64,000 bases of DNA, from the NCBI GenBank assembly GCA_965116875.1, contig OZ220733.1:4224001-4288000 (forward strand), read 5' to 3'. The notes below the pieces were generated by a model, which was given only the letters and a program-made list of their open reading frames with translations, had not been told where the DNA came from and did no database searches. The stretch comes from Candidatus Latescibacterota bacterium (GTDB lineage: Bacteria > Latescibacterota > UBA2968 > GCA-2709665). This document shows positions 44,907-49,947 of the stretch, piece by piece. Positions within the stretch are counted from its first letter, which is position 1. Every line of letters starts with the position of its first letter. The position numbers were made by a program, and so were the translations under genes.

Positions 44907-46469
44907 ATGCGGATGCGTATTTTTCTTCTCTTCCTGCTGTCTGCCGTCTTCGCCTGCGAGGCGGAGCGCCCCAGGACTCTGGTGTTCGGCAGGGGCGGCG
45001 ACACCGTGGGGCTGGATCCCGCACTGGAAACCGATGGCGAGTCATTCAAGGTCTGCGACAATATTTACGACAACCTTGTCACGTTCAGGCCGGAAAACAC
45101 CGAATTGGCGCCCGGTCTGGCGGAGTCCTGGGCGGCGTCGGACGACCTGAAAACGTGGACCTTCAAGCTCAGGCGGAACGTCGTGTTCCATGACGGGAGT
45201 CCTTTCAACGCGGACGCGGTGGTGTTCTCGCTTGCCCGGCAGTTCAAACCCGACCATCCGTTTCACCGGGTGGAAGGCGCGTTTCAGTATTGGAACAGCA
45301 TGTCGATGAGCGAGATTGTCAGCGACGTGAAAAAGGTGGACGATCATACGGTTTCCATAGAGCTGACGCGTCCCAACGCGCCGTTTCTGTCGAATCTCGC
45401 GATGAATTTCTGCGGGATCGTGAGCCCGTCCGCCGTACGGAAGCACGGAGCGGACTTTCCCAGGCACCCGGTGGGCACGGGTCCGTTCCGATTTGTGCAG
45501 TGGATCAAGGACGACCGCGTGGTGCTGGAGCGAAATCCCGACTATTGGGGCGATGCGCCTGAGATCGACAGGCTGATCTTCAGAAGCATTCCGGAGAATT
45601 CCGTGCGCCTGATCGCGCTCATCCAGGGTTCGATTGACGGAATGGACCATCTGGTGCCCGATTTCATTCCGAATATCGAAGAACACCCACACCTTCGGCT
45701 CCTGACCCAGCCGGGTATGAACGTTGGGTACATGGCCATGAATATGGATCGGGCGCCGTTCCACCTTCTGAAGGTGCGAAGGGCGGTGAACCACGCCATC
45801 AACAAACAGGCGCTGGTGGACAATCTGTATCAGGGTCTTGCGCTGCCGGCTGTCAACCCGATTCCACCCTCGATGTGGAGCTATCACGAAGGGATCGAAG
45901 GATACGCCTACGATCCGGAAAGGGCCCGGGAGCTGCTGGTCGAGGCCGGCTATGCGGACGGATTCGAGACCACGCTTTGGGCCATGCCGGTGCCGCGCCC
46001 GTATATGCCGCAGCCAAGGAAAATCGCCCAGGCCATCCAGGCCGACCTGCAGGCCGTCGGTATCCGGGCCGAAATCGTGAGCTATGAATGGGGGACCTAT
46101 CTGGACAAGGTTTCCCGGGGGCAGCACGATATGGCGCTCCTGGGCTGGACGGGCGACAACGGCGACCCCGACAATTTCCTGTACGTCCTGCTCGACAAGA
46201 GCGCGGCACAACATCCCGCCAATAACATCGCGTTCTACCGCAGCGACGAACTGCACGAAGTGCTGGTGCAGGCGCAACGGGAAGTGGACGTCGCCGTCAG
46301 GACCGGGCTTTACCGGAAGGCGCAGGAGATCGTGTTCCAGGATGCGCCATGGGCGCCTCTCGTACACGCGGCGCAGACCGCCGCGTTCAAGAAGACGGTA
46401 ACCGGATTCACGCTTCATCCTACCGGCAGCAAGTGGTTCCAGAACGTGCGGATCCTGGAAACGGATTGA
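44907..46469 (+). CDS. dppA: Dipeptide ABC transporter substrate-binding lipoprotein
   Basis: Lipobox FAC; PVGTGPF, WAMPVPRPYMP, GWTGDNGDPDNF. Confidence 0.9.
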   Translation: MRMRIFLLFLLSAVFACEAERPRTLVFGRGGDTVGLDPALETDGESFKVCDNIYDNLVTFRPENTELAPGLAESWAASDDLKTWTFKLRRNVVFHDGSPFNADAVVFSLARQFKPDHPFHRVEGAFQYWNSMSMSEIVSDVKKVDDHTVSIELTRPNAPFLSNLAMNFCGIVSPSAVRKHGADFPRHPVGTGPFRFVQWIKDDRVVLERNPDYWGDAPEIDRLIFRSIPENSVRLIALIQGSIDGMDHLVPDFIPNIEEHPHLRLLTQPGMNVGYMAMNMDRAPFHLLKVRRAVNHAINKQALVDNLYQGLALPAVNPIPPSMWSYHEGIEGYAYDPERARELLVEAGYADGFETTLWAMPVPRPYMPQPRKIAQAIQADLQAVGIRAEIVSYEWGTYLDKVSRGQHDMALLGWTGDNGDPDNFLYVLLDKSAAQHPANNIAFYRSDELHEVLVQAQREVDVAVRTGLYRKAQEIVFQDAPWAPLVHAAQTAAFKKTVTGFTLHPTGSKWFQNVRILETD

Positions 46470-46527
46470 GGGCGCCGAAACGTCCGTATAACGACCCGTA
46501 TCCGGCACCTTTGAGGCAAGTCGCGCG

Positions 46528-47541
46528 ATGGGCGTCTACATCCTGAAACGCTTGTTTCTCCTTGTCCCCATGCTGCTGGGAATCGTCGTCCTGGTTTTCC
46601 TGATGGTACACTTCGTTCCGGGCGATCCCGCGCAGGTGATGCTGGGTGAACGGGCCAGCGCGGAACAGGTGGCTGAATTGCGCAGGCAACTGGGACTGGA
46701 TCAGGAGTTGCACGTCCAGCTCGGCCTGTACCTGTGGGGGCTGGCCCAGGGCGACCTGGGACGTTCCTTCAAGTCCCATGCGAAAGTCTCCTCCGAGTTG
46801 CTGGCCAGGTTTCCCGCGACGCTCGAACTCACGTTGATCAGTATGTTGCTGGCCTGCGGGGTCGGGATCGTTGCGGGCGTGGTTTCGGCATCGCGCAAGG
46901 GTTCCGTCATGGATTACCTCGGCATGACGGTTTCCCTGGCCGGGTTGTCGATGCCGATTTTCTGGCTGGGCCTGATGGTTATTCTGGTGATGTCGGTTTT
47001 TCTCGGGTTGTTTCCCGTGTCGGGACGGCTCAGCACCCATATTTTTATTCCGGAGGTCACCGGACTCTATCTGATCGACAGCCTGCTGGCAAGGGACTGG
47101 AGGGCTTTCGCAGACACCGCCTGGCATCTCGTGCTGCCCGGCATTACGCTGGGCACCGTGCCGATGGCGGTGATCGCGCGGATGACACGATCCAGCCTCC
47201 TGGATGTACTCAAGGAAGATTATGTACGTACGGCATGGGCGAAGGGGCTGTCGGAACGGATCGTCATCTTCCGGCATGCGCTCAAGAACGCGTTTATTCC
47301 CGTGTTGACCGTAATCAGCCTTCAGTTCGGATTCCTGCTCGGGGGCGCCGTCATTACGGAGACGATCTTCGCGTGGCCGGGGGTGGGACGGTGGCTCCTG
47401 CTGGCGGTATATTCGAGGGATTTCAGGGCCGTTCAGGGAGGGGTGCTGCTGGTTGCGCTGATGTTTGCACTGATCAACCTCATTGCAGACGTGATGTACG
47501 CGTGGCTGGACCCGCGCATCAGACACCGGAACCGTGCATGA
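46528..47541 (+). CDS. dppB: Dipeptide ABC transporter permease
   Basis: PGDPA, FPATLEL, DYVRTAWAKGL, LDPRI. Confidence 0.9.
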   Translation: MGVYILKRLFLLVPMLLGIVVLVFLMVHFVPGDPAQVMLGERASAEQVAELRRQLGLDQELHVQLGLYLWGLAQGDLGRSFKSHAKVSSELLARFPATLELTLISMLLACGVGIVAGVVSASRKGSVMDYLGMTVSLAGLSMPIFWLGLMVILVMSVFLGLFPVSGRLSTHIFIPEVTGLYLIDSLLARDWRAFADTAWHLVLPGITLGTVPMAVIARMTRSSLLDVLKEDYVRTAWAKGLSERIVIFRHALKNAFIPVLTVISLQFGFLLGGAVITETIFAWPGVGRWLLLAVYSRDFRAVQGGVLLVALMFALINLIADVMYAWLDPRIRHRNRA

Positions 47542-48440
47542 ACCGATCATTCCATCCGGCCGCGGGAACAGGTGTCGAAGTCGACGGATCACAGGGCCTG
47601 ACGGACGCGGGCTGGGGCGGGTTGTTCTGGAAACGGCTTCTGAAGAACCGGTTGGCTGCCGCGGGCGGCGTCCTGCTGCTGGGATTCCTGTTGCTGGCGA
47701 TCGCCGCGCCCCTGGCCGCGCCGCACGATCCCTATGCCCAGAATCTCTATGAACGTCTCCAGCCGCCGTCACTGGCGTATCCGTTCGGTACGGACGACTT
47801 TGGACGGGACGTTCTGAGCCGTGTCATTTACGGCGCGCGAATTTCGCTGCGTGTCGGGGTTGCCGCCGTGCTGATCGCACTGGTCCTGGGCGTTCCGATC
47901 GGGCTCGTTTCGGGGTACTGGGGCGGCGCGCTGGACCAGGTTCTGATGCGGGCGATGGATCTGATGCTCGCATTTCCCAGCATCCTTCTGGCCATCGCCA
48001 TCGTGGCGATCCTGGGACCGGGGTTGGAGAATGCGATGCTGGCGGTCGGGATCGTCGCGGTGCCGCAGTACGCCCGTCTGGTGCGGGCATCCGCGCTGAC
48101 CGTGCGTGGACAGGACTACGTTCAGGCTGTACGGGCGCTTGGCGCGGGGGATTTCCGTATCCTGTTTTTTTCGATTCTTCCGAACTGTCTGACGCCACTG
48201 ATCGTGCAGTCCACGCTGGGTCTGGCAACCGCTATCCTCGATGCCGCGGGCCTGAGCTTCCTGGGATTGGGCGCGCAGCCGCCCACGCCGGAGTGGGGCG
48301 CCATGTTGACCGGTGGAAGGGAACTGGTGCTGCGTGCGCCGTGGGTATTGACGTTTCCGGGCGTGGCGATTTTCCTGACCGTATTGGCATTCAACCTGGT
48401 TGGAGACGGATTGCGCGACGCCCTGGATCCAAGGACCTGA
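47538..48440 (+). CDS. dppC: Dipeptide ABC transporter permease
   Basis: GTDDFGRD, LSFLGLGAQPPTPEWG, GDGLRDALDP; ATG 47538 overlaps dppB stop. Confidence 0.9.
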   Translation: MNRSFHPAAGTGVEVDGSQGLTDAGWGGLFWKRLLKNRLAAAGGVLLLGFLLLAIAAPLAAPHDPYAQNLYERLQPPSLAYPFGTDDFGRDVLSRVIYGARISLRVGVAAVLIALVLGVPIGLVSGYWGGALDQVLMRAMDLMLAFPSILLAIAIVAILGPGLENAMLAVGIVAVPQYARLVRASALTVRGQDYVQAVRALGAGDFRILFFSILPNCLTPLIVQSTLGLATAILDAAGLSFLGLGAQPPTPEWGAMLTGGRELVLRAPWVLTFPGVAIFLTVLAFNLVGDGLRDALDPRT

Positions 48441-48458
48441 CCTGGCCGGAGAAAGCCT

Positions 48459-48487
48459 TTGACTTCCGCATTCCGGTGGCGTATATT
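48459..48487 (+). promoter_or_regulatory. sigma70-like promoter
   Basis: TTGACT (48459-48464), 17 bp, TATATT (48482-48487). Confidence 0.7.
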
Positions 48488-48493
48488 CCGCTT

Positions 48494-48756
48494 ACACGGA
48501 AAGGAGGTGGTCAAATGATCGAATCGACCAGTGGAGGTGGCTGTAGTTAGGTGCGCTGCCGGGTGCGGGAGAACATCTCGTCTGGTAACGCGCCTGGCGA
48601 ATCTAGACAGCCATCGAAAGACAGGCGATCCGTCGGTTTGACGGGCCCCGGCCACTCGGACGGGGCGCTGTGAGATGGAAGCCGTCTCAAGAGTTGCGCC
48701 GTGAGGAGATGTGGCCGGAGGATCGGCTCCCGAATCGCGGCGCATTTTTCTGTCTT
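48494..48756 (+). ncRNA. Candidate structured RNA with extended SD and micro-ORF
   Basis: Two long GU-rich hairpin domains (48535-48615, 48618-48756) downstream of a consensus promoter. Confidence 0.5.
48515..48550 (+). CDS. Candidate micro-ORF MIESTSGGGCS
   Basis: Preceded by AAAGGAGGTGGTC (48500-48512). Confidence 0.3.
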   Translation: MIESTSGGGCS

Positions 48757-48770
48757 ATAAGGGTTTGTGC

Positions 48771-48799
48771 TTGACAAAATCACGCATGCTCTATATCTT
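48771..48799 (+). promoter_or_regulatory. rplM promoter
   Basis: TTGACA, 17 bp, TATCTT. Confidence 0.65.
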
Positions 48800-48880
48800 C
48801 TGAGGCTTGACAATGCGTGGAATTGTCACGGAGAGGGGGTGAGTTCGAATTCGGCGTCGATGTGGACGCCGTTCGGATTT

Positions 48881-49315
48881 ATGAATACGCCAAGCGCTAA
48901 AAGATCTGACGTCGAACGCAAATGGTTTCTGGCTGATGCCGACGGTAAGGTGCTGGGTCGTTTTGCAAGCGAAGTTGCACGGATCCTGATGGGCAAACAC
49001 AAGCCGTATTATACGTCCCACGTGGATACCGGTGATCATGTCATCGTGGTCAACTCCGACAAGATCATGGTCAAAGGCGCAAATAAGCCCGACCAGAAGC
49101 TTTATACACGATTCAGCGGATATCCTGGAGGTCTGAAAACCAAAACCCTGAAGCGGGCGCTCGAAACGCAGCCGCAGTTCGTGCTGGAACATGCGATACG
49201 GGGAATGTTGCCGCGCACGAAACTCGGGCGGAGGATGATGAAGAAGGTCCGGATTTACACGGGTTCCGATCATCCGCACGACAGTCAGGCGCCCGAAGCG
49301 ATCGACCTTGCTTGA
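48881..49315 (+). CDS. rplM: 50S ribosomal protein L13
   Basis: RKWFLADA, LMGKHKP, DTGDHVIVVN, SGYPGG, GMLP. Confidence 0.97.
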   Translation: MNTPSAKRSDVERKWFLADADGKVLGRFASEVARILMGKHKPYYTSHVDTGDHVIVVNSDKIMVKGANKPDQKLYTRFSGYPGGLKTKTLKRALETQPQFVLEHAIRGMLPRTKLGRRMMKKVRIYTGSDHPHDSQAPEAIDLA

Positions 49316-49328
49316 ATCCCGCCGCATC

Positions 49329-49525
49329 CAACTTCAATACGAAAGAAACAACGGTGCGGCATCGCGACAGCGGCTTCCAGAATGGTATGTAAACGTCGTC
49401 CGGAAGGGCATTTTTTCGGTTCCCGTCCAGCGACTTGGTGTATCCTGGTAATCAGCCTTCTAATCGCCTTTATTAACTTGCACATATTCGAATTTACGTC
49501 CACGAAAACTTACGAATCAAAGTGA
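49329..49525 (-). repeat. MITE-like element family B, degenerate copy in the rplM-rpsI spacer
   Basis: Reverse complement aligns with 57153-57349 (shared GCTGATTACCAGGATACACCA and AATTCGAATATGTG). Confidence 0.8.
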
Positions 49526-49554: not shown

Positions 49555-49947
49555 TTGGCAGAGATCCTTGCTTCTGCCAGAGGCCGGCGCAAGTCGGCCA
49601 CGGCAAACGTGAAGCTGTTTCCCGGATCCGGGGAAATTACCATCAACGGCAGGCCCATTCTGGATTATCTGAAGCGCGAGACGCTGGTGATGATCGTGGA
49701 ACAGCCGCTGACGGTTACGGAAACGACCGGACAATACAACATCGTCGCCAGCGCCAAGGGCGGTGGTCTCAGCGGACAGGCCGGGGCCGTTCGGCTGGGT
49801 ATCGCCCGGGGCCTGCTTGCCCTGAACGATGATCTCAAGACGCCGCTGCGCGAGGCCGGGCTGTTGACCCGCGACGCGCGAGAGGTGGAACGAAAGAAGC
49901 CTGGCCGACCGGGCGCGCGAAAACGGTTCCAGTTTTCCAAACGCTAG
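49555..49947 (+). CDS. rpsI: 30S ribosomal protein S9
   Basis: GRRK, GGGLSGQAGA, LTRDAREVERKK, FQFSKR. Confidence 0.98.
   Translation: MAEILASARGRRKSATANVKLFPGSGEITINGRPILDYLKRETLVMIVEQPLTVTETTGQYNIVASAKGGGLSGQAGAVRLGIARGLLALNDDLKTPLREAGLLTRDAREVERKKPGRPGARKRFQFSKR

Follow-up and report, generated by a model that had tools for sequence, protein, structure and literature searches.

A small RNA gene upstream of rplM in a Latescibacterota genome is a divergent relative of actinobacterial Ms_IGR-5 and probably works as a ribosome-engaging mini-mRNA

Ms_IGR-5 (Rfam RF02471, "Actinobacteria sRNA") has so far been catalogued as an actinobacterial small RNA (sRNA) of unknown function, and the small mRNAs rreB and rreR as alpha-proteobacterial. 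In M. abscessus and M. smegmatis, ribosome-protected reads on homologues of Ms_IGR-5 were significant according to the consulted parts of the source (PMC4974804), and excerpts of further reports describe its RNA-seq validation as an sRNA in S. lividans as well as its match to an sRNA transcription unit in S. avermitilis. For rreB of Bradyrhizobium, the consulted parts of the original paper (PMC5711450), on which all statements about the rre RNAs in this text are based, describe a 165-nt mRNA with 17 nt of complementarity to 16S rRNA and a 14-codon open reading frame (ORF), which co-sediments with the 30S subunit, is weakly translated and becomes stabilised on removal of its start codon. Its authors describe the 5' seed as free and the remaining Shine-Dalgarno (SD) sequence as part of a hairpin, and call its function elusive; our literature search found no work citing rreB beyond this original paper. 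Here we describe an RNA gene located in a 64,000-nt stretch of the genome of a Candidatus Latescibacterota bacterium (contig OZ220733.1, positions 4,224,001 to 4,288,000; referred to as the window, whose numbering is used throughout). It extends Ms_IGR-5 to a new phylum as a divergent variant and follows the same working logic as the rre RNAs.

The RNA gene is about 255 nt long (48494-48751, + strand, from a conserved ACAC to a run of U) and is housed in the 440-nt gap between a dppC-like ABC permease gene, ending at 48440, and rplM, beginning at 48881. A consensus scan locates a sigma-70-type promoter with 10 of 12 matches directly upstream on the same strand (48459-48487), TTGACT (48459-48464)-17-TATATT (48482-48487), as had been proposed in an earlier sequence-only reading of this locus. 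Promoter-like sites numbered two within 48000-49400, compared with 0.7 +/- 0.8 from shuffles. With the 361-nt region as query, nhmmer recovered 20 of 20 relatives' loci at near-full length (E = 6e-80 to 3e-25), and these were aligned together with the window sequence (21 sequences, all of the window's order). Both promoter hexamer regions are kept in 21 of 21 sequences, and the alignment equally keeps the ACAC, GAAAGGAGGTGGTC, the ATG, the TAG, the 11-codon frame between them and the U-run. At the 3' end, the consensus fold revealed an intrinsic terminator, GCGCCG...CGGCGC (48696-48743) followed by ATTTTTCT (48696-48751 in total, + strand). Its helix comprises 18 pairs, is paired in 97.1% of cells with six compensatory pairs, and is followed by the U-run in 21 of 21 sequences. 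A dedicated terminator scan of the window flagged no terminator at this position, because the loop of the hairpin exceeds the limit of the scan.

The 361-nt region is present in one copy in its own 5.45-Mb genome. From 15 of the order's sequences we built R1, a covariance model of the 126 5' positions. In 47 of the 48 further genomes of the order (f1, 17/18; f2, 30/30) it detects the RNA, exactly one copy in each, and it has a match in 1 of 102 genomes from other families of the phylum. The possibility of a repeat element with many dispersed genomic copies, raised by the sequence-only reading itself, was looked for and is ruled out by one copy per genome, both in its own genome and in five genomes of other phyla. 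Owing to its own conserved promoter and terminator, and to relatives that occur elsewhere without rplM, the proposal of a stand-alone structured RNA gene that is not the rplM leader stands: 48494-48751 is a stand-alone conserved small RNA gene.

Traces of the locus are also found in public sequencing data. Part of the stretch is contained in 22 of the 24 runs listed, six of which are RNA libraries, and four RNA runs were examined, all as assembled contigs. A 232-nt metatranscriptome contig covers 48494-48718 with three differences, its ends being no guide to the ends of a transcript; a 196-nt contig at 48537-48732 and others of 148-175 nt lie inside the RNA, and transcript ends are not readable from these contigs either. 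Neither the contig ends nor the uncovered interval 48777-49016 are evidence of transcript boundaries. As such, the metatranscriptome contigs give a weak hint of expression of the window RNA.

The link to Ms_IGR-5 emerged below the curated thresholds of Rfam. At gathering thresholds, no Rfam family matches anywhere in the window. At a relaxed threshold, RF02471 matches 48494-48633 with 26.9 bits (E = 3.8e-4), spanning model positions 1-184 and aligning the blocks GGAAGGAGGUGGUC, GAGGUGGCUG, GCGAAU and CAGyCA, and the rest of the matches to 48300-49000 at E up to 10 is at chance level (Scr1601, E = 1.1; CC2171, 1.5; Six3os1_3, 4.6). The Rfam check suggested with the sequence-only reading hence returned nothing at gathering thresholds, 6S included, and RF02471 below them. 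The same sub-threshold match (one per genome, 23-41 bits) is found in 39 of 41 genomes of the order, with 0 of 41 over the cut-off, and in 0 of 14 control genomes.

A search for the pattern AAGGAGGTGRTC-N(8-38)-GAGGTGRCTG, with every species represented by a single genome, yielded at least 120 cross-phylum loci, in which the same four blocks are visible. Among the matches listed, and judged by record title, most belong to Actinomycetota; Acidobacteriota are represented by Pyrinomonadaceae, Blastocatellia and Terriglobales, Planctomycetota by three loci and Candidatus Latescibacterota by two (L062 and L099). Furthermore, there are single contigs of metagenome-assembled genomes (MAGs) labelled Eisenbacteria, Zixibacteria, Sumerlaeota and Heliobacteriaceae and two labelled Syntrophobacter and Deltaproteobacteria; the phylum labels of single MAG contigs are possible binning errors, and multi-genome support exists for four phyla only. 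Despite being built from the order, R1 matches 97 of the 100 cross-phylum loci tested out of these at least 120. Among 16 actinobacterial loci tested, 15 pass the RF02471 cut-off (48.8-185 bits), which L062 and L099 do not, and of 10 non-actinobacterial loci two come near it (43.3 and 42.5 bits) and eight have no match at E <= 0.01. Because R1 aligns RF02471-passing loci with strong covariation, the window RNA and Ms_IGR-5 are homologous, and RF02471 as curated is the actinobacterial branch only. In view of the sub-threshold match and of models that join the window RNA to RNAs passing the cut-off, the label "undescribed" given to it earlier was wrong. The same holds for its ribosome-binding design, since rreB and rreR with 16-17 nt of 16S complementarity had already been published (PMC5711450, consulted in part).

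A second model, R2, was built from the cross-phylum alignment and applied at E <= 0.001 with stricter filters, the model E-values being rough. It finds the RNA in 74 of 151 Latescibacterota genomes (besides the window's order, in 22/64 of f3, 2/2 of f4 and 2/5 of f8), in 71 of 151 Actinomycetota genomes (six of them unpublished; 72 matches), and in 28 of 151 Acidobacteriota and 10 of 151 Planctomycetota genomes. Nearly every matching genome has exactly one, and five genomes from other phyla have one each.

In direct comparison, the window RNA and Ms_IGR-5 have in common a 5' ACAC-N-GGAAGGAGGUGGUC, a hairpin holding the start codon, GAGGUGGCUG, the same place of the stop, the helices of a first structural domain with a GCGAAUyC junction and a CAGyCACC closing strand, and the organization as a single-copy stand-alone gene. 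The window RNA differs by its occurrence outside Actinobacteria, the range given for RF02471, by one extra G that shifts the frame of its mini-ORF (SGGGC rather than EVA), by a shorter domain 1 combined with an added 70-nt domain 2, and by its linkage to rplM instead of the actinobacterial neighbours. The Ms_IGR-5/RF02471 literature searched does not mention an extended SD, a mini-ORF or a range beyond Actinobacteria, and the search gave no mycobacterial sRNA name for the Rv0812 locus. As a side observation, two actinobacterial loci carry a tRNA gene 1-5 kb away from Ms_IGR-5 (L129, 1209-1283; L035, 1465-1538). The rreB gene adjoins a tRNA-Gly gene in Bradyrhizobium (PMC5711450, consulted in part), and this parallel may be coincidence.

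The most prominent sequence feature of the RNA is an extended SD close to its 5' end (SD1, GGAAAGGAGGTGGTC, 48498-48512, + strand). It pairs with the organism's own 16S 3' end, ...GGATCACCTCCTTTCT, over 15 contiguous positions including two G-U pairs; the single 16S gene of the genome ends ...GGCTGGATCACCTCCTTTCT. The 16S complementarity recognized in the sequence-only reading, which gave 13 nt with one G-U pair, hence extends to the organism's own 16S tail. The SD1-16S duplex amounts to -26.2 kcal/mol, compared with -10.7 kcal/mol for a plain AAGGAGG. Within the order, the 14 nt GAAAGGAGGTGGTC (48499-48512) are invariant, the preceding G (48498) being an A in 19 of 21 sequences, and SD1 is kept in the at least 120 cross-phylum loci, which were selected with the SD1 motif. 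SD1 is followed by the mini-ORF (48515-48550, + strand), consisting of the 11 codons MIESTSGGGCS and a UAG at 48548-48550. Inside this ORF, 7 nt before the last sense codon, there is a second SD-like motif (SD2, GGAGGTGG, 48533-48540, + strand), which forms a duplex of -15.0 kcal/mol with 16S rRNA. Both the ORF and the second motif had been recognized from the sequence.

Long complements of the 16S tail also occur outside the window in the same genome, in G000:C1 at about 147.7-167.3 kb. There, seven copies of a 12-14-nt complement (GAAAGGAGGTGAT and variants) are each succeeded by a conserved ATATTGGAATCCACGTCGC-type sequence, and five of the seven are located about 140-270 nt upstream of a member of a tandem array of paralogous ORFs, whose products measure about 570-724 aa and have N-termini resembling signal peptides. 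Because the motif is directly succeeded by short ORFs only, this seven-copy set looks like a second 5'-leader class with an extended SD-like start.

The RNA is highly structured: for the 277-nt stretch the folding energy is -124.9 kcal/mol (z = -4.03), with 0 of 200 shuffles as good, and the opposite strand folds less well (z = -2.66). In consensus folds, 48498-48506 is unpaired except for one isolated predicted G-U pair at 48506. Hairpin 1 (48508-48530, + strand), formed by TGGTC (48508-48512) and GACCA (48526-48530), hides the 3' part of SD1 and carries the AUG in its loop. It was already part of the sequence-only reading, and all five of its pairs (helix 2) show compensatory changes across phyla. 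Domain 1 (48536-48615, + strand) appears in the consensus folds of both 15 and 21 relatives. The outer helix is formed by GGTGGCTGT (48536-48544) together with an anti-SD-like strand, ACAGCCATC (48607-48615); its inner counterpart joins 48546-48556 with 48588-48598, and a conserved unpaired GCGAATC lies between the two. Both of these helices, equally foreseen, covary across phyla, helix 3 being paired in 97.9% of cells and helix 4 compensatory in 11 of 11 pairs. The 5' half is nearly invariant inside the order; in three sequences GGCTGT/ACAGCC is replaced by GACTGT/ACAGTC, by which the pair is kept and the mini-ORF changes from Gly to Asp. In the cross-phylum covariation alignment, consisting of the 97 sequences matched by R1, 89.9% of cells pair and 28 of 33 pairs are compensatory, which is reached by 0 of 500 shuffles (slid controls, 30-44%), and 337 cells are changed on both sides, compared with 107 in shuffles. 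Covariation in homologues, on which the sequence-only reading had let its proposal depend, was accordingly found.

In the 3' half, domain 2 (48619-48687, + strand) is, in the consensus fold of 21 sequences, a long irregular hairpin that is lineage-specific (e.g., TCCGTC/GATGGA) and absent from short forms in other lineages. Every cell of its helices 1-3 is paired (100%), and compensatory changes affect 9 of their 15 pairs; including the terminator (helix 4), 98.4% of cells pair and 15 of 33 pairs are compensatory, with slid controls at 30-51%. This fold replaces the one drawn earlier for domain 2, whose helices CGATCC/GGATCG, CCGGCCAC/GTGGCCGG and TGAGATGG/CCGTCTCA are complementary in this sequence alone: over 21 relatives they pair in 55.6% of cells, compared with a shuffle mean of 54.5%, and CGATCC/GGATCG in 27.8%. 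The closing helix AAGACAG/CTGTCTT has to be abandoned as well, being located partly beyond the U-run with a 3' arm that is not conserved.

In other Latescibacterota families, short forms of about 82 nt occur in which SD2 is paired directly with a CCACCT-containing strand. In six of these short forms (L155-L160), which are not beside rplM, SD2 reads GGGAGGTGGATCACCTGA, containing GGATCACCT as in the 16S tail, and is paired with CAGGTGATCGCCACCT in a plain SD/anti-SD-mimic helix, followed by another hairpin and a terminator.

To define what is conserved in the mini-ORF, we compared 141 loci (21 of the order and 120 cross-phylum loci among the matches listed), comprising 133 ORFs including an extra candidate in L056. 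An ORF starting with ATG, GTG or TTG 7-14 nt after AAGGAGG is present in 132 of 141 loci. The ORFs have 11-17 codons (11 or 12 in 124 of 133). Their stops lie 9-18 nt past the GAGG of SD2 (10 or 11 nt in 128 of 133), TAG being the stop in 113 of 133. The nine other loci all stop at 10-11 nt, eight of them fitting with a CTG start and one with a start 16 nt downstream, so that the mini-ORF is present in 141 of 141 loci once these starts are allowed. The CTG loci are mostly Acidimicrobiia records (L036, L042, L048, L059, L108, L120, L135, L142); in them CTG is the only in-frame start at the usual place, 8 nt after AAGGAGG, and opens ORFs of 13-14 codons with the common stop. A long read-through ORF after the UAG was also considered and is ruled out by indels in domain 1 of relatives that are not multiples of three.

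Across phyla, the invariant GAGGTGGCTG is read in three frames, as ..E-V-A.. in Actinomycetota, Acidobacteriota and others, as ..S-G-G-G-C.. in Latescibacterota and the Eisenbacteria contig, and as ..Q-R-W-L.. in Planctomycetota. ORF length and SD-to-start distance vary by lineage, and the frame to the common stop is retained. Three frames through the same nucleotides with a fixed stop imply conservation of the RNA sequence and of ribosome transit, and not of the peptide. A ribosome start, a passage through SD2 and a fixed stop, if these are what has to be kept, would leave such a pattern; a functional peptide would not. The second proposal of the sequence-only reading, a micropeptide gene, has to be weighed at this point; in such a gene the 11 residues would be what functions, and the RNA structure would do no more than tune expression. 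In its favor are a strong SD at correct spacing, an ATG and a stop; all 21 sequences of the order encode M-x-[ED]-x-TSGG[GD]C[SR], and the actinobacterial versions have ..R-T-R-E-V-A.. in common. Nevertheless, besides the three reading frames, codons 5-10 are invariant in the order including their third positions, save for the covarying GGC/GAC, and the sole amino-acid change among them is the Gly to Asp that is compensated at the RNA level. In addition, synthetic versions of the analogous RreB and RreR peptides lacked structure, and no function for them emerged in the consulted parts of their description (PMC5711450). The question whether peptide or RNA is conserved is hence answered in favor of the RNA, the peptide being kept within the order, and we regard a micropeptide gene as very unlikely.

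The position of the RNA directly upstream of rplM (L13; 48881-49315, + strand) and rpsI (49555-49947, + strand; both from the ORF list) raises the alternative of a cis-acting leader or attenuator of this operon, either as a new L13/S9 autoregulatory element or as a ribosome-sensing attenuator. Within the order the association is tight: tblastn with L13 and S9 located rplM-rpsI downstream of the RNA in 19 of 20 loci, the contig of the twentieth being too short, and L062 and L099 also carry L13 and S9 just downstream. L062 is very similar to the window (L13 match, E = 2.5e-85), by which the organism of the window is assigned to the Latescibacterota. Moreover, the ribosome-binding region of rplM itself (48855-48883) pairs weakly with the 16S tail (-6.0 kcal/mol), unlike the RNA gene just upstream. 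On the other hand, the RNA ends in the conserved terminator hairpin and U-run, and it is followed by a separate promoter-like site for rplM outside the RNA, TTGACA-17-TATCTT (48771-48799, + strand), of which TTGACA aligns in 19 of 21 sequences. From the stop codon of the mini-ORF it is about 145 nt to the terminator downstream, an interval occupied by two stable domains. L13 or S9 was found nearby in 0 of the 118 remaining cross-phylum loci among the matches listed and in 0 of 7 loci of other Latescibacterota groups, including G038 of the same order.

ORF clustering and a Pfam search with 19 flanking proteins revealed no conserved protein neighbour common between phyla. The neighbours elsewhere are unrelated enzymes and transporters, comprising amidohydrolases in Pyrinomonadaceae, a DAHP synthase in Planctomycetota, and OPT transporters and glycosidases in other places; the actinobacterial neighbours resemble nitrobindin (FABP family), YgfZ, Fur and PabC, as far as their sequences can be read by eye. 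The known L13 leader (RF00555) is alike in its position upstream of rplM; it differs in that the window RNA has its own terminator and family members unlinked to rplM, and it gave no match at gathering in the window or at E up to 10 in 48300-49000. Given the own terminator, the separate rplM promoter and the unlinked relatives, a leader or attenuator role is quite unlikely. Placement beside a translation operon, which the sequence-only reading had stressed, is a property of this order, not of every member and not of other lineages, and a lineage-specific link of the RNA to ribosomal protein supply is conceivable. On the upstream side, the genes at 44907-48440 resemble, on our reading of their sequences, those of an oligopeptide/dipeptide ABC transporter with a 520-aa substrate-binding protein and two permeases; the ORF listed at 46734-48440 presumably starts too early, the actual permease start being further downstream within it.

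In consideration of these data, we judge it reasonably probable that the window RNA, as a divergent Ms_IGR-5 relative, works as a ribosome-engaging mini-mRNA. The free 5' nucleotides would pair with the 16S rRNA 3' tail over 15 nt, well beyond a normal SD. The 30S subunit would dock on these nucleotides and then melt hairpin 1, which contains the 3' part of SD1 and the AUG, thereby exposing the AUG; freeing SD1 is calculated to cost about 6.7 kcal/mol. Subsequently, the 11-codon ORF would be translated through SD2, with the peptide itself probably not being the conserved thing. In the free RNA, SD2 is predicted to be paired with the anti-SD-like strand ACAGCCAUC closing domain 1. The ORF ends 10 nt after the GGAGG of SD2, at the foot of the inner helix, and with the stop in the A site the last sense codon lies 7 nt after GGAGG, an initiation-like spacing for the anti-SD of the ribosome on SD2. 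The footprint of a ribosome at the stop codon would remove about 27.5 kcal/mol of domain-1 structure and free ACAGCCAUC; as the stop is located at the inner helix past SD2, a ribosome at the stop would have unfolded domain 1. In this manner the RNA would capture ribosomes, whose passage would switch its fold and probably its lifetime. We infer ribosome binding, parking at the stop and a physiological output from this design, and the role is most likely the reporting or buffering of free ribosome or initiation capacity. The ribosome-binding or ribosome-sensing RNA postulated by the sequence-only reading is supported to this extent, as the design points to ribosome engagement; its being new as such is not.

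An SD-like motif within an ORF, a few nucleotides upstream of the stop, is familiar from the RF2 (prfB) frameshift site and internal SD pauses, and in this arrangement the anti-SD of the elongating ribosome can pair while the stop is in the A site. The window RNA differs from the RF2 site in having neither a slippery sequence nor a downstream continuation of the frame; indels in domain 1 do not preserve a frame, and the stop is mostly UAG and not UGA.

Judged by analogy of design, rreB of the alpha-proteobacteria is the closest functional analogue. According to the consulted parts of its description (PMC5711450), the rre RNAs and the window RNA have in common a stand-alone small transcript with promoter and terminator, a 5' region complementary to the 16S 3' end well past the canonical SD, first SD nucleotides that are single-stranded with the remainder in a conserved hairpin (here 48508-48512/48526-48530), a very short ORF next to it (here 11 codons, with the start 2 nt after the pairing region), and a genomic context that differs between lineages. 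In the rre RNAs the complementarity is perfect over 16-17 nt and takes in the GTG start's first base, whereas the window RNA forms 15 pairs with two G-U and its pairing ends 2 nt before the ATG. A second SD-like motif or an anti-SD-like closing strand is not described for rreB in those parts of the paper. Sequence homology between the rre RNAs and the window RNA is not demonstrable beyond the 16S-complementary stretch, with Caulobacter CC2171 at E = 1.5.

A further possibility is a trans-acting base-pairing sRNA, which would act via its SD-like motifs or the unmasked ACAGCCAUC and for which ribosome contacts and the mini-ORF would be secondary. Consistent with it are the stand-alone gene with promoter and terminator, a conservation at the nucleotide and not the peptide level, the classification of the actinobacterial relatives as sRNA in Rfam, and the short forms, in which the strand paired to SD2 is an anti-SD look-alike. 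The founding paper on Ms_IGR-5 (Li et al. 2013), going by its title, reportedly found the RNA with heterologous Hfq, which we also count on this side. Such a role leaves unexplained the start at SD spacing, the open frame and the fixed stop in all 141 loci in three frames, as well as a complementarity that follows the 16S tail beyond GGAGG, and we consider it unlikely. An RNA-polymerase-binding RNA of the 6S or Ms1 kind would be of similar size and high structure, and homologues of the window RNA are expressed in Actinobacteria; with no 6S match in the window and a fold of a 5' hairpin plus two branched domains in place of a long rod with a central bubble, this explanation is extremely improbable. 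Independently of this, identity of Ms_IGR-5 with Ms1 is ruled out by the S. lividans positions given in the consulted excerpt: Ms_IGR-5 at 3.70 Mb is 0.8 Mb away from 6C RNA at 4.53 Mb, and Ms1 lies one gene from 6C RNA.

Several observations speak against a ribosome-engaging mini-mRNA related to Ms_IGR-5 and have to be set beside the evidence for it. The score of 26.9 bits is below the curated RF02471 gathering cut-off of 45. The covariation alignment was fitted to the model, which favours structure; the margin is nonetheless large. Contigs of RNA runs reveal neither ends nor strand, and DNA was possibly present; one contig (X22, record 13) reaches upstream of 48489 with a promoter-like loose end, and a 1305-nt contig of a relative (X20, record 3) reaches across from the upstream gene. 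The peptide is conserved throughout the order (21/21), leaving room for a peptide function in this lineage. The genome contains 73 sites with at least 12 contiguous pairs to the 16S tail, among which the SD1 element ranks fourth; they include one on the complementary strand of the 16S gene itself and the seven-copy leader family in G000:C1. Long SDs are hence not unique in this genome, and a strong SD alone is therefore no proof of a special ribosome-binding role. Finally, overexpression of rreB had no growth effect, and by its authors' conclusion its main function is not simple ribosome sequestration (PMC5711450, consulted in part).

Tentatively, and at a low level of probability, the proposal can be extended to ancient multi-phylum ribosome-sensing riboregulators, in which the helix of an SD copy with an anti-SD mimic is switched as a mini-ORF of dispensable sequence is translated, the terminating ribosome stays on SD2, and the freed strand is the acting part. 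If this were true, that anti-SD-like strand would either close off SD1 in cis, so that no RNA is read a second time, or target the SDs of other mRNAs in trans. The supply of free ribosomes would in this way be linked to gene expression, in this order possibly including that of rplM-rpsI.

For the family as a whole, these data give the Ms_IGR-5 design a far greater age and range than the catalogue does. The features that do not vary are those of a ribosome trap: an SD of 14-15 nt, a hairpin enclosing the start codon, a stop at a constant place behind SD2 and an internal anti-SD look-alike. Measured against the literature searched, the multi-phylum range, the fixed stop after an anti-SD-masked second SD and the evidence for an irrelevance of the peptide appear to be new. 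In terms of annotation, the Rfam cut-off misses the non-actinobacterial branches of the family. Beyond this, the design provides a concrete, testable model for a class of orphan sRNAs, and cultivable hosts such as Mycobacterium smegmatis and Streptomyces are at hand for it.

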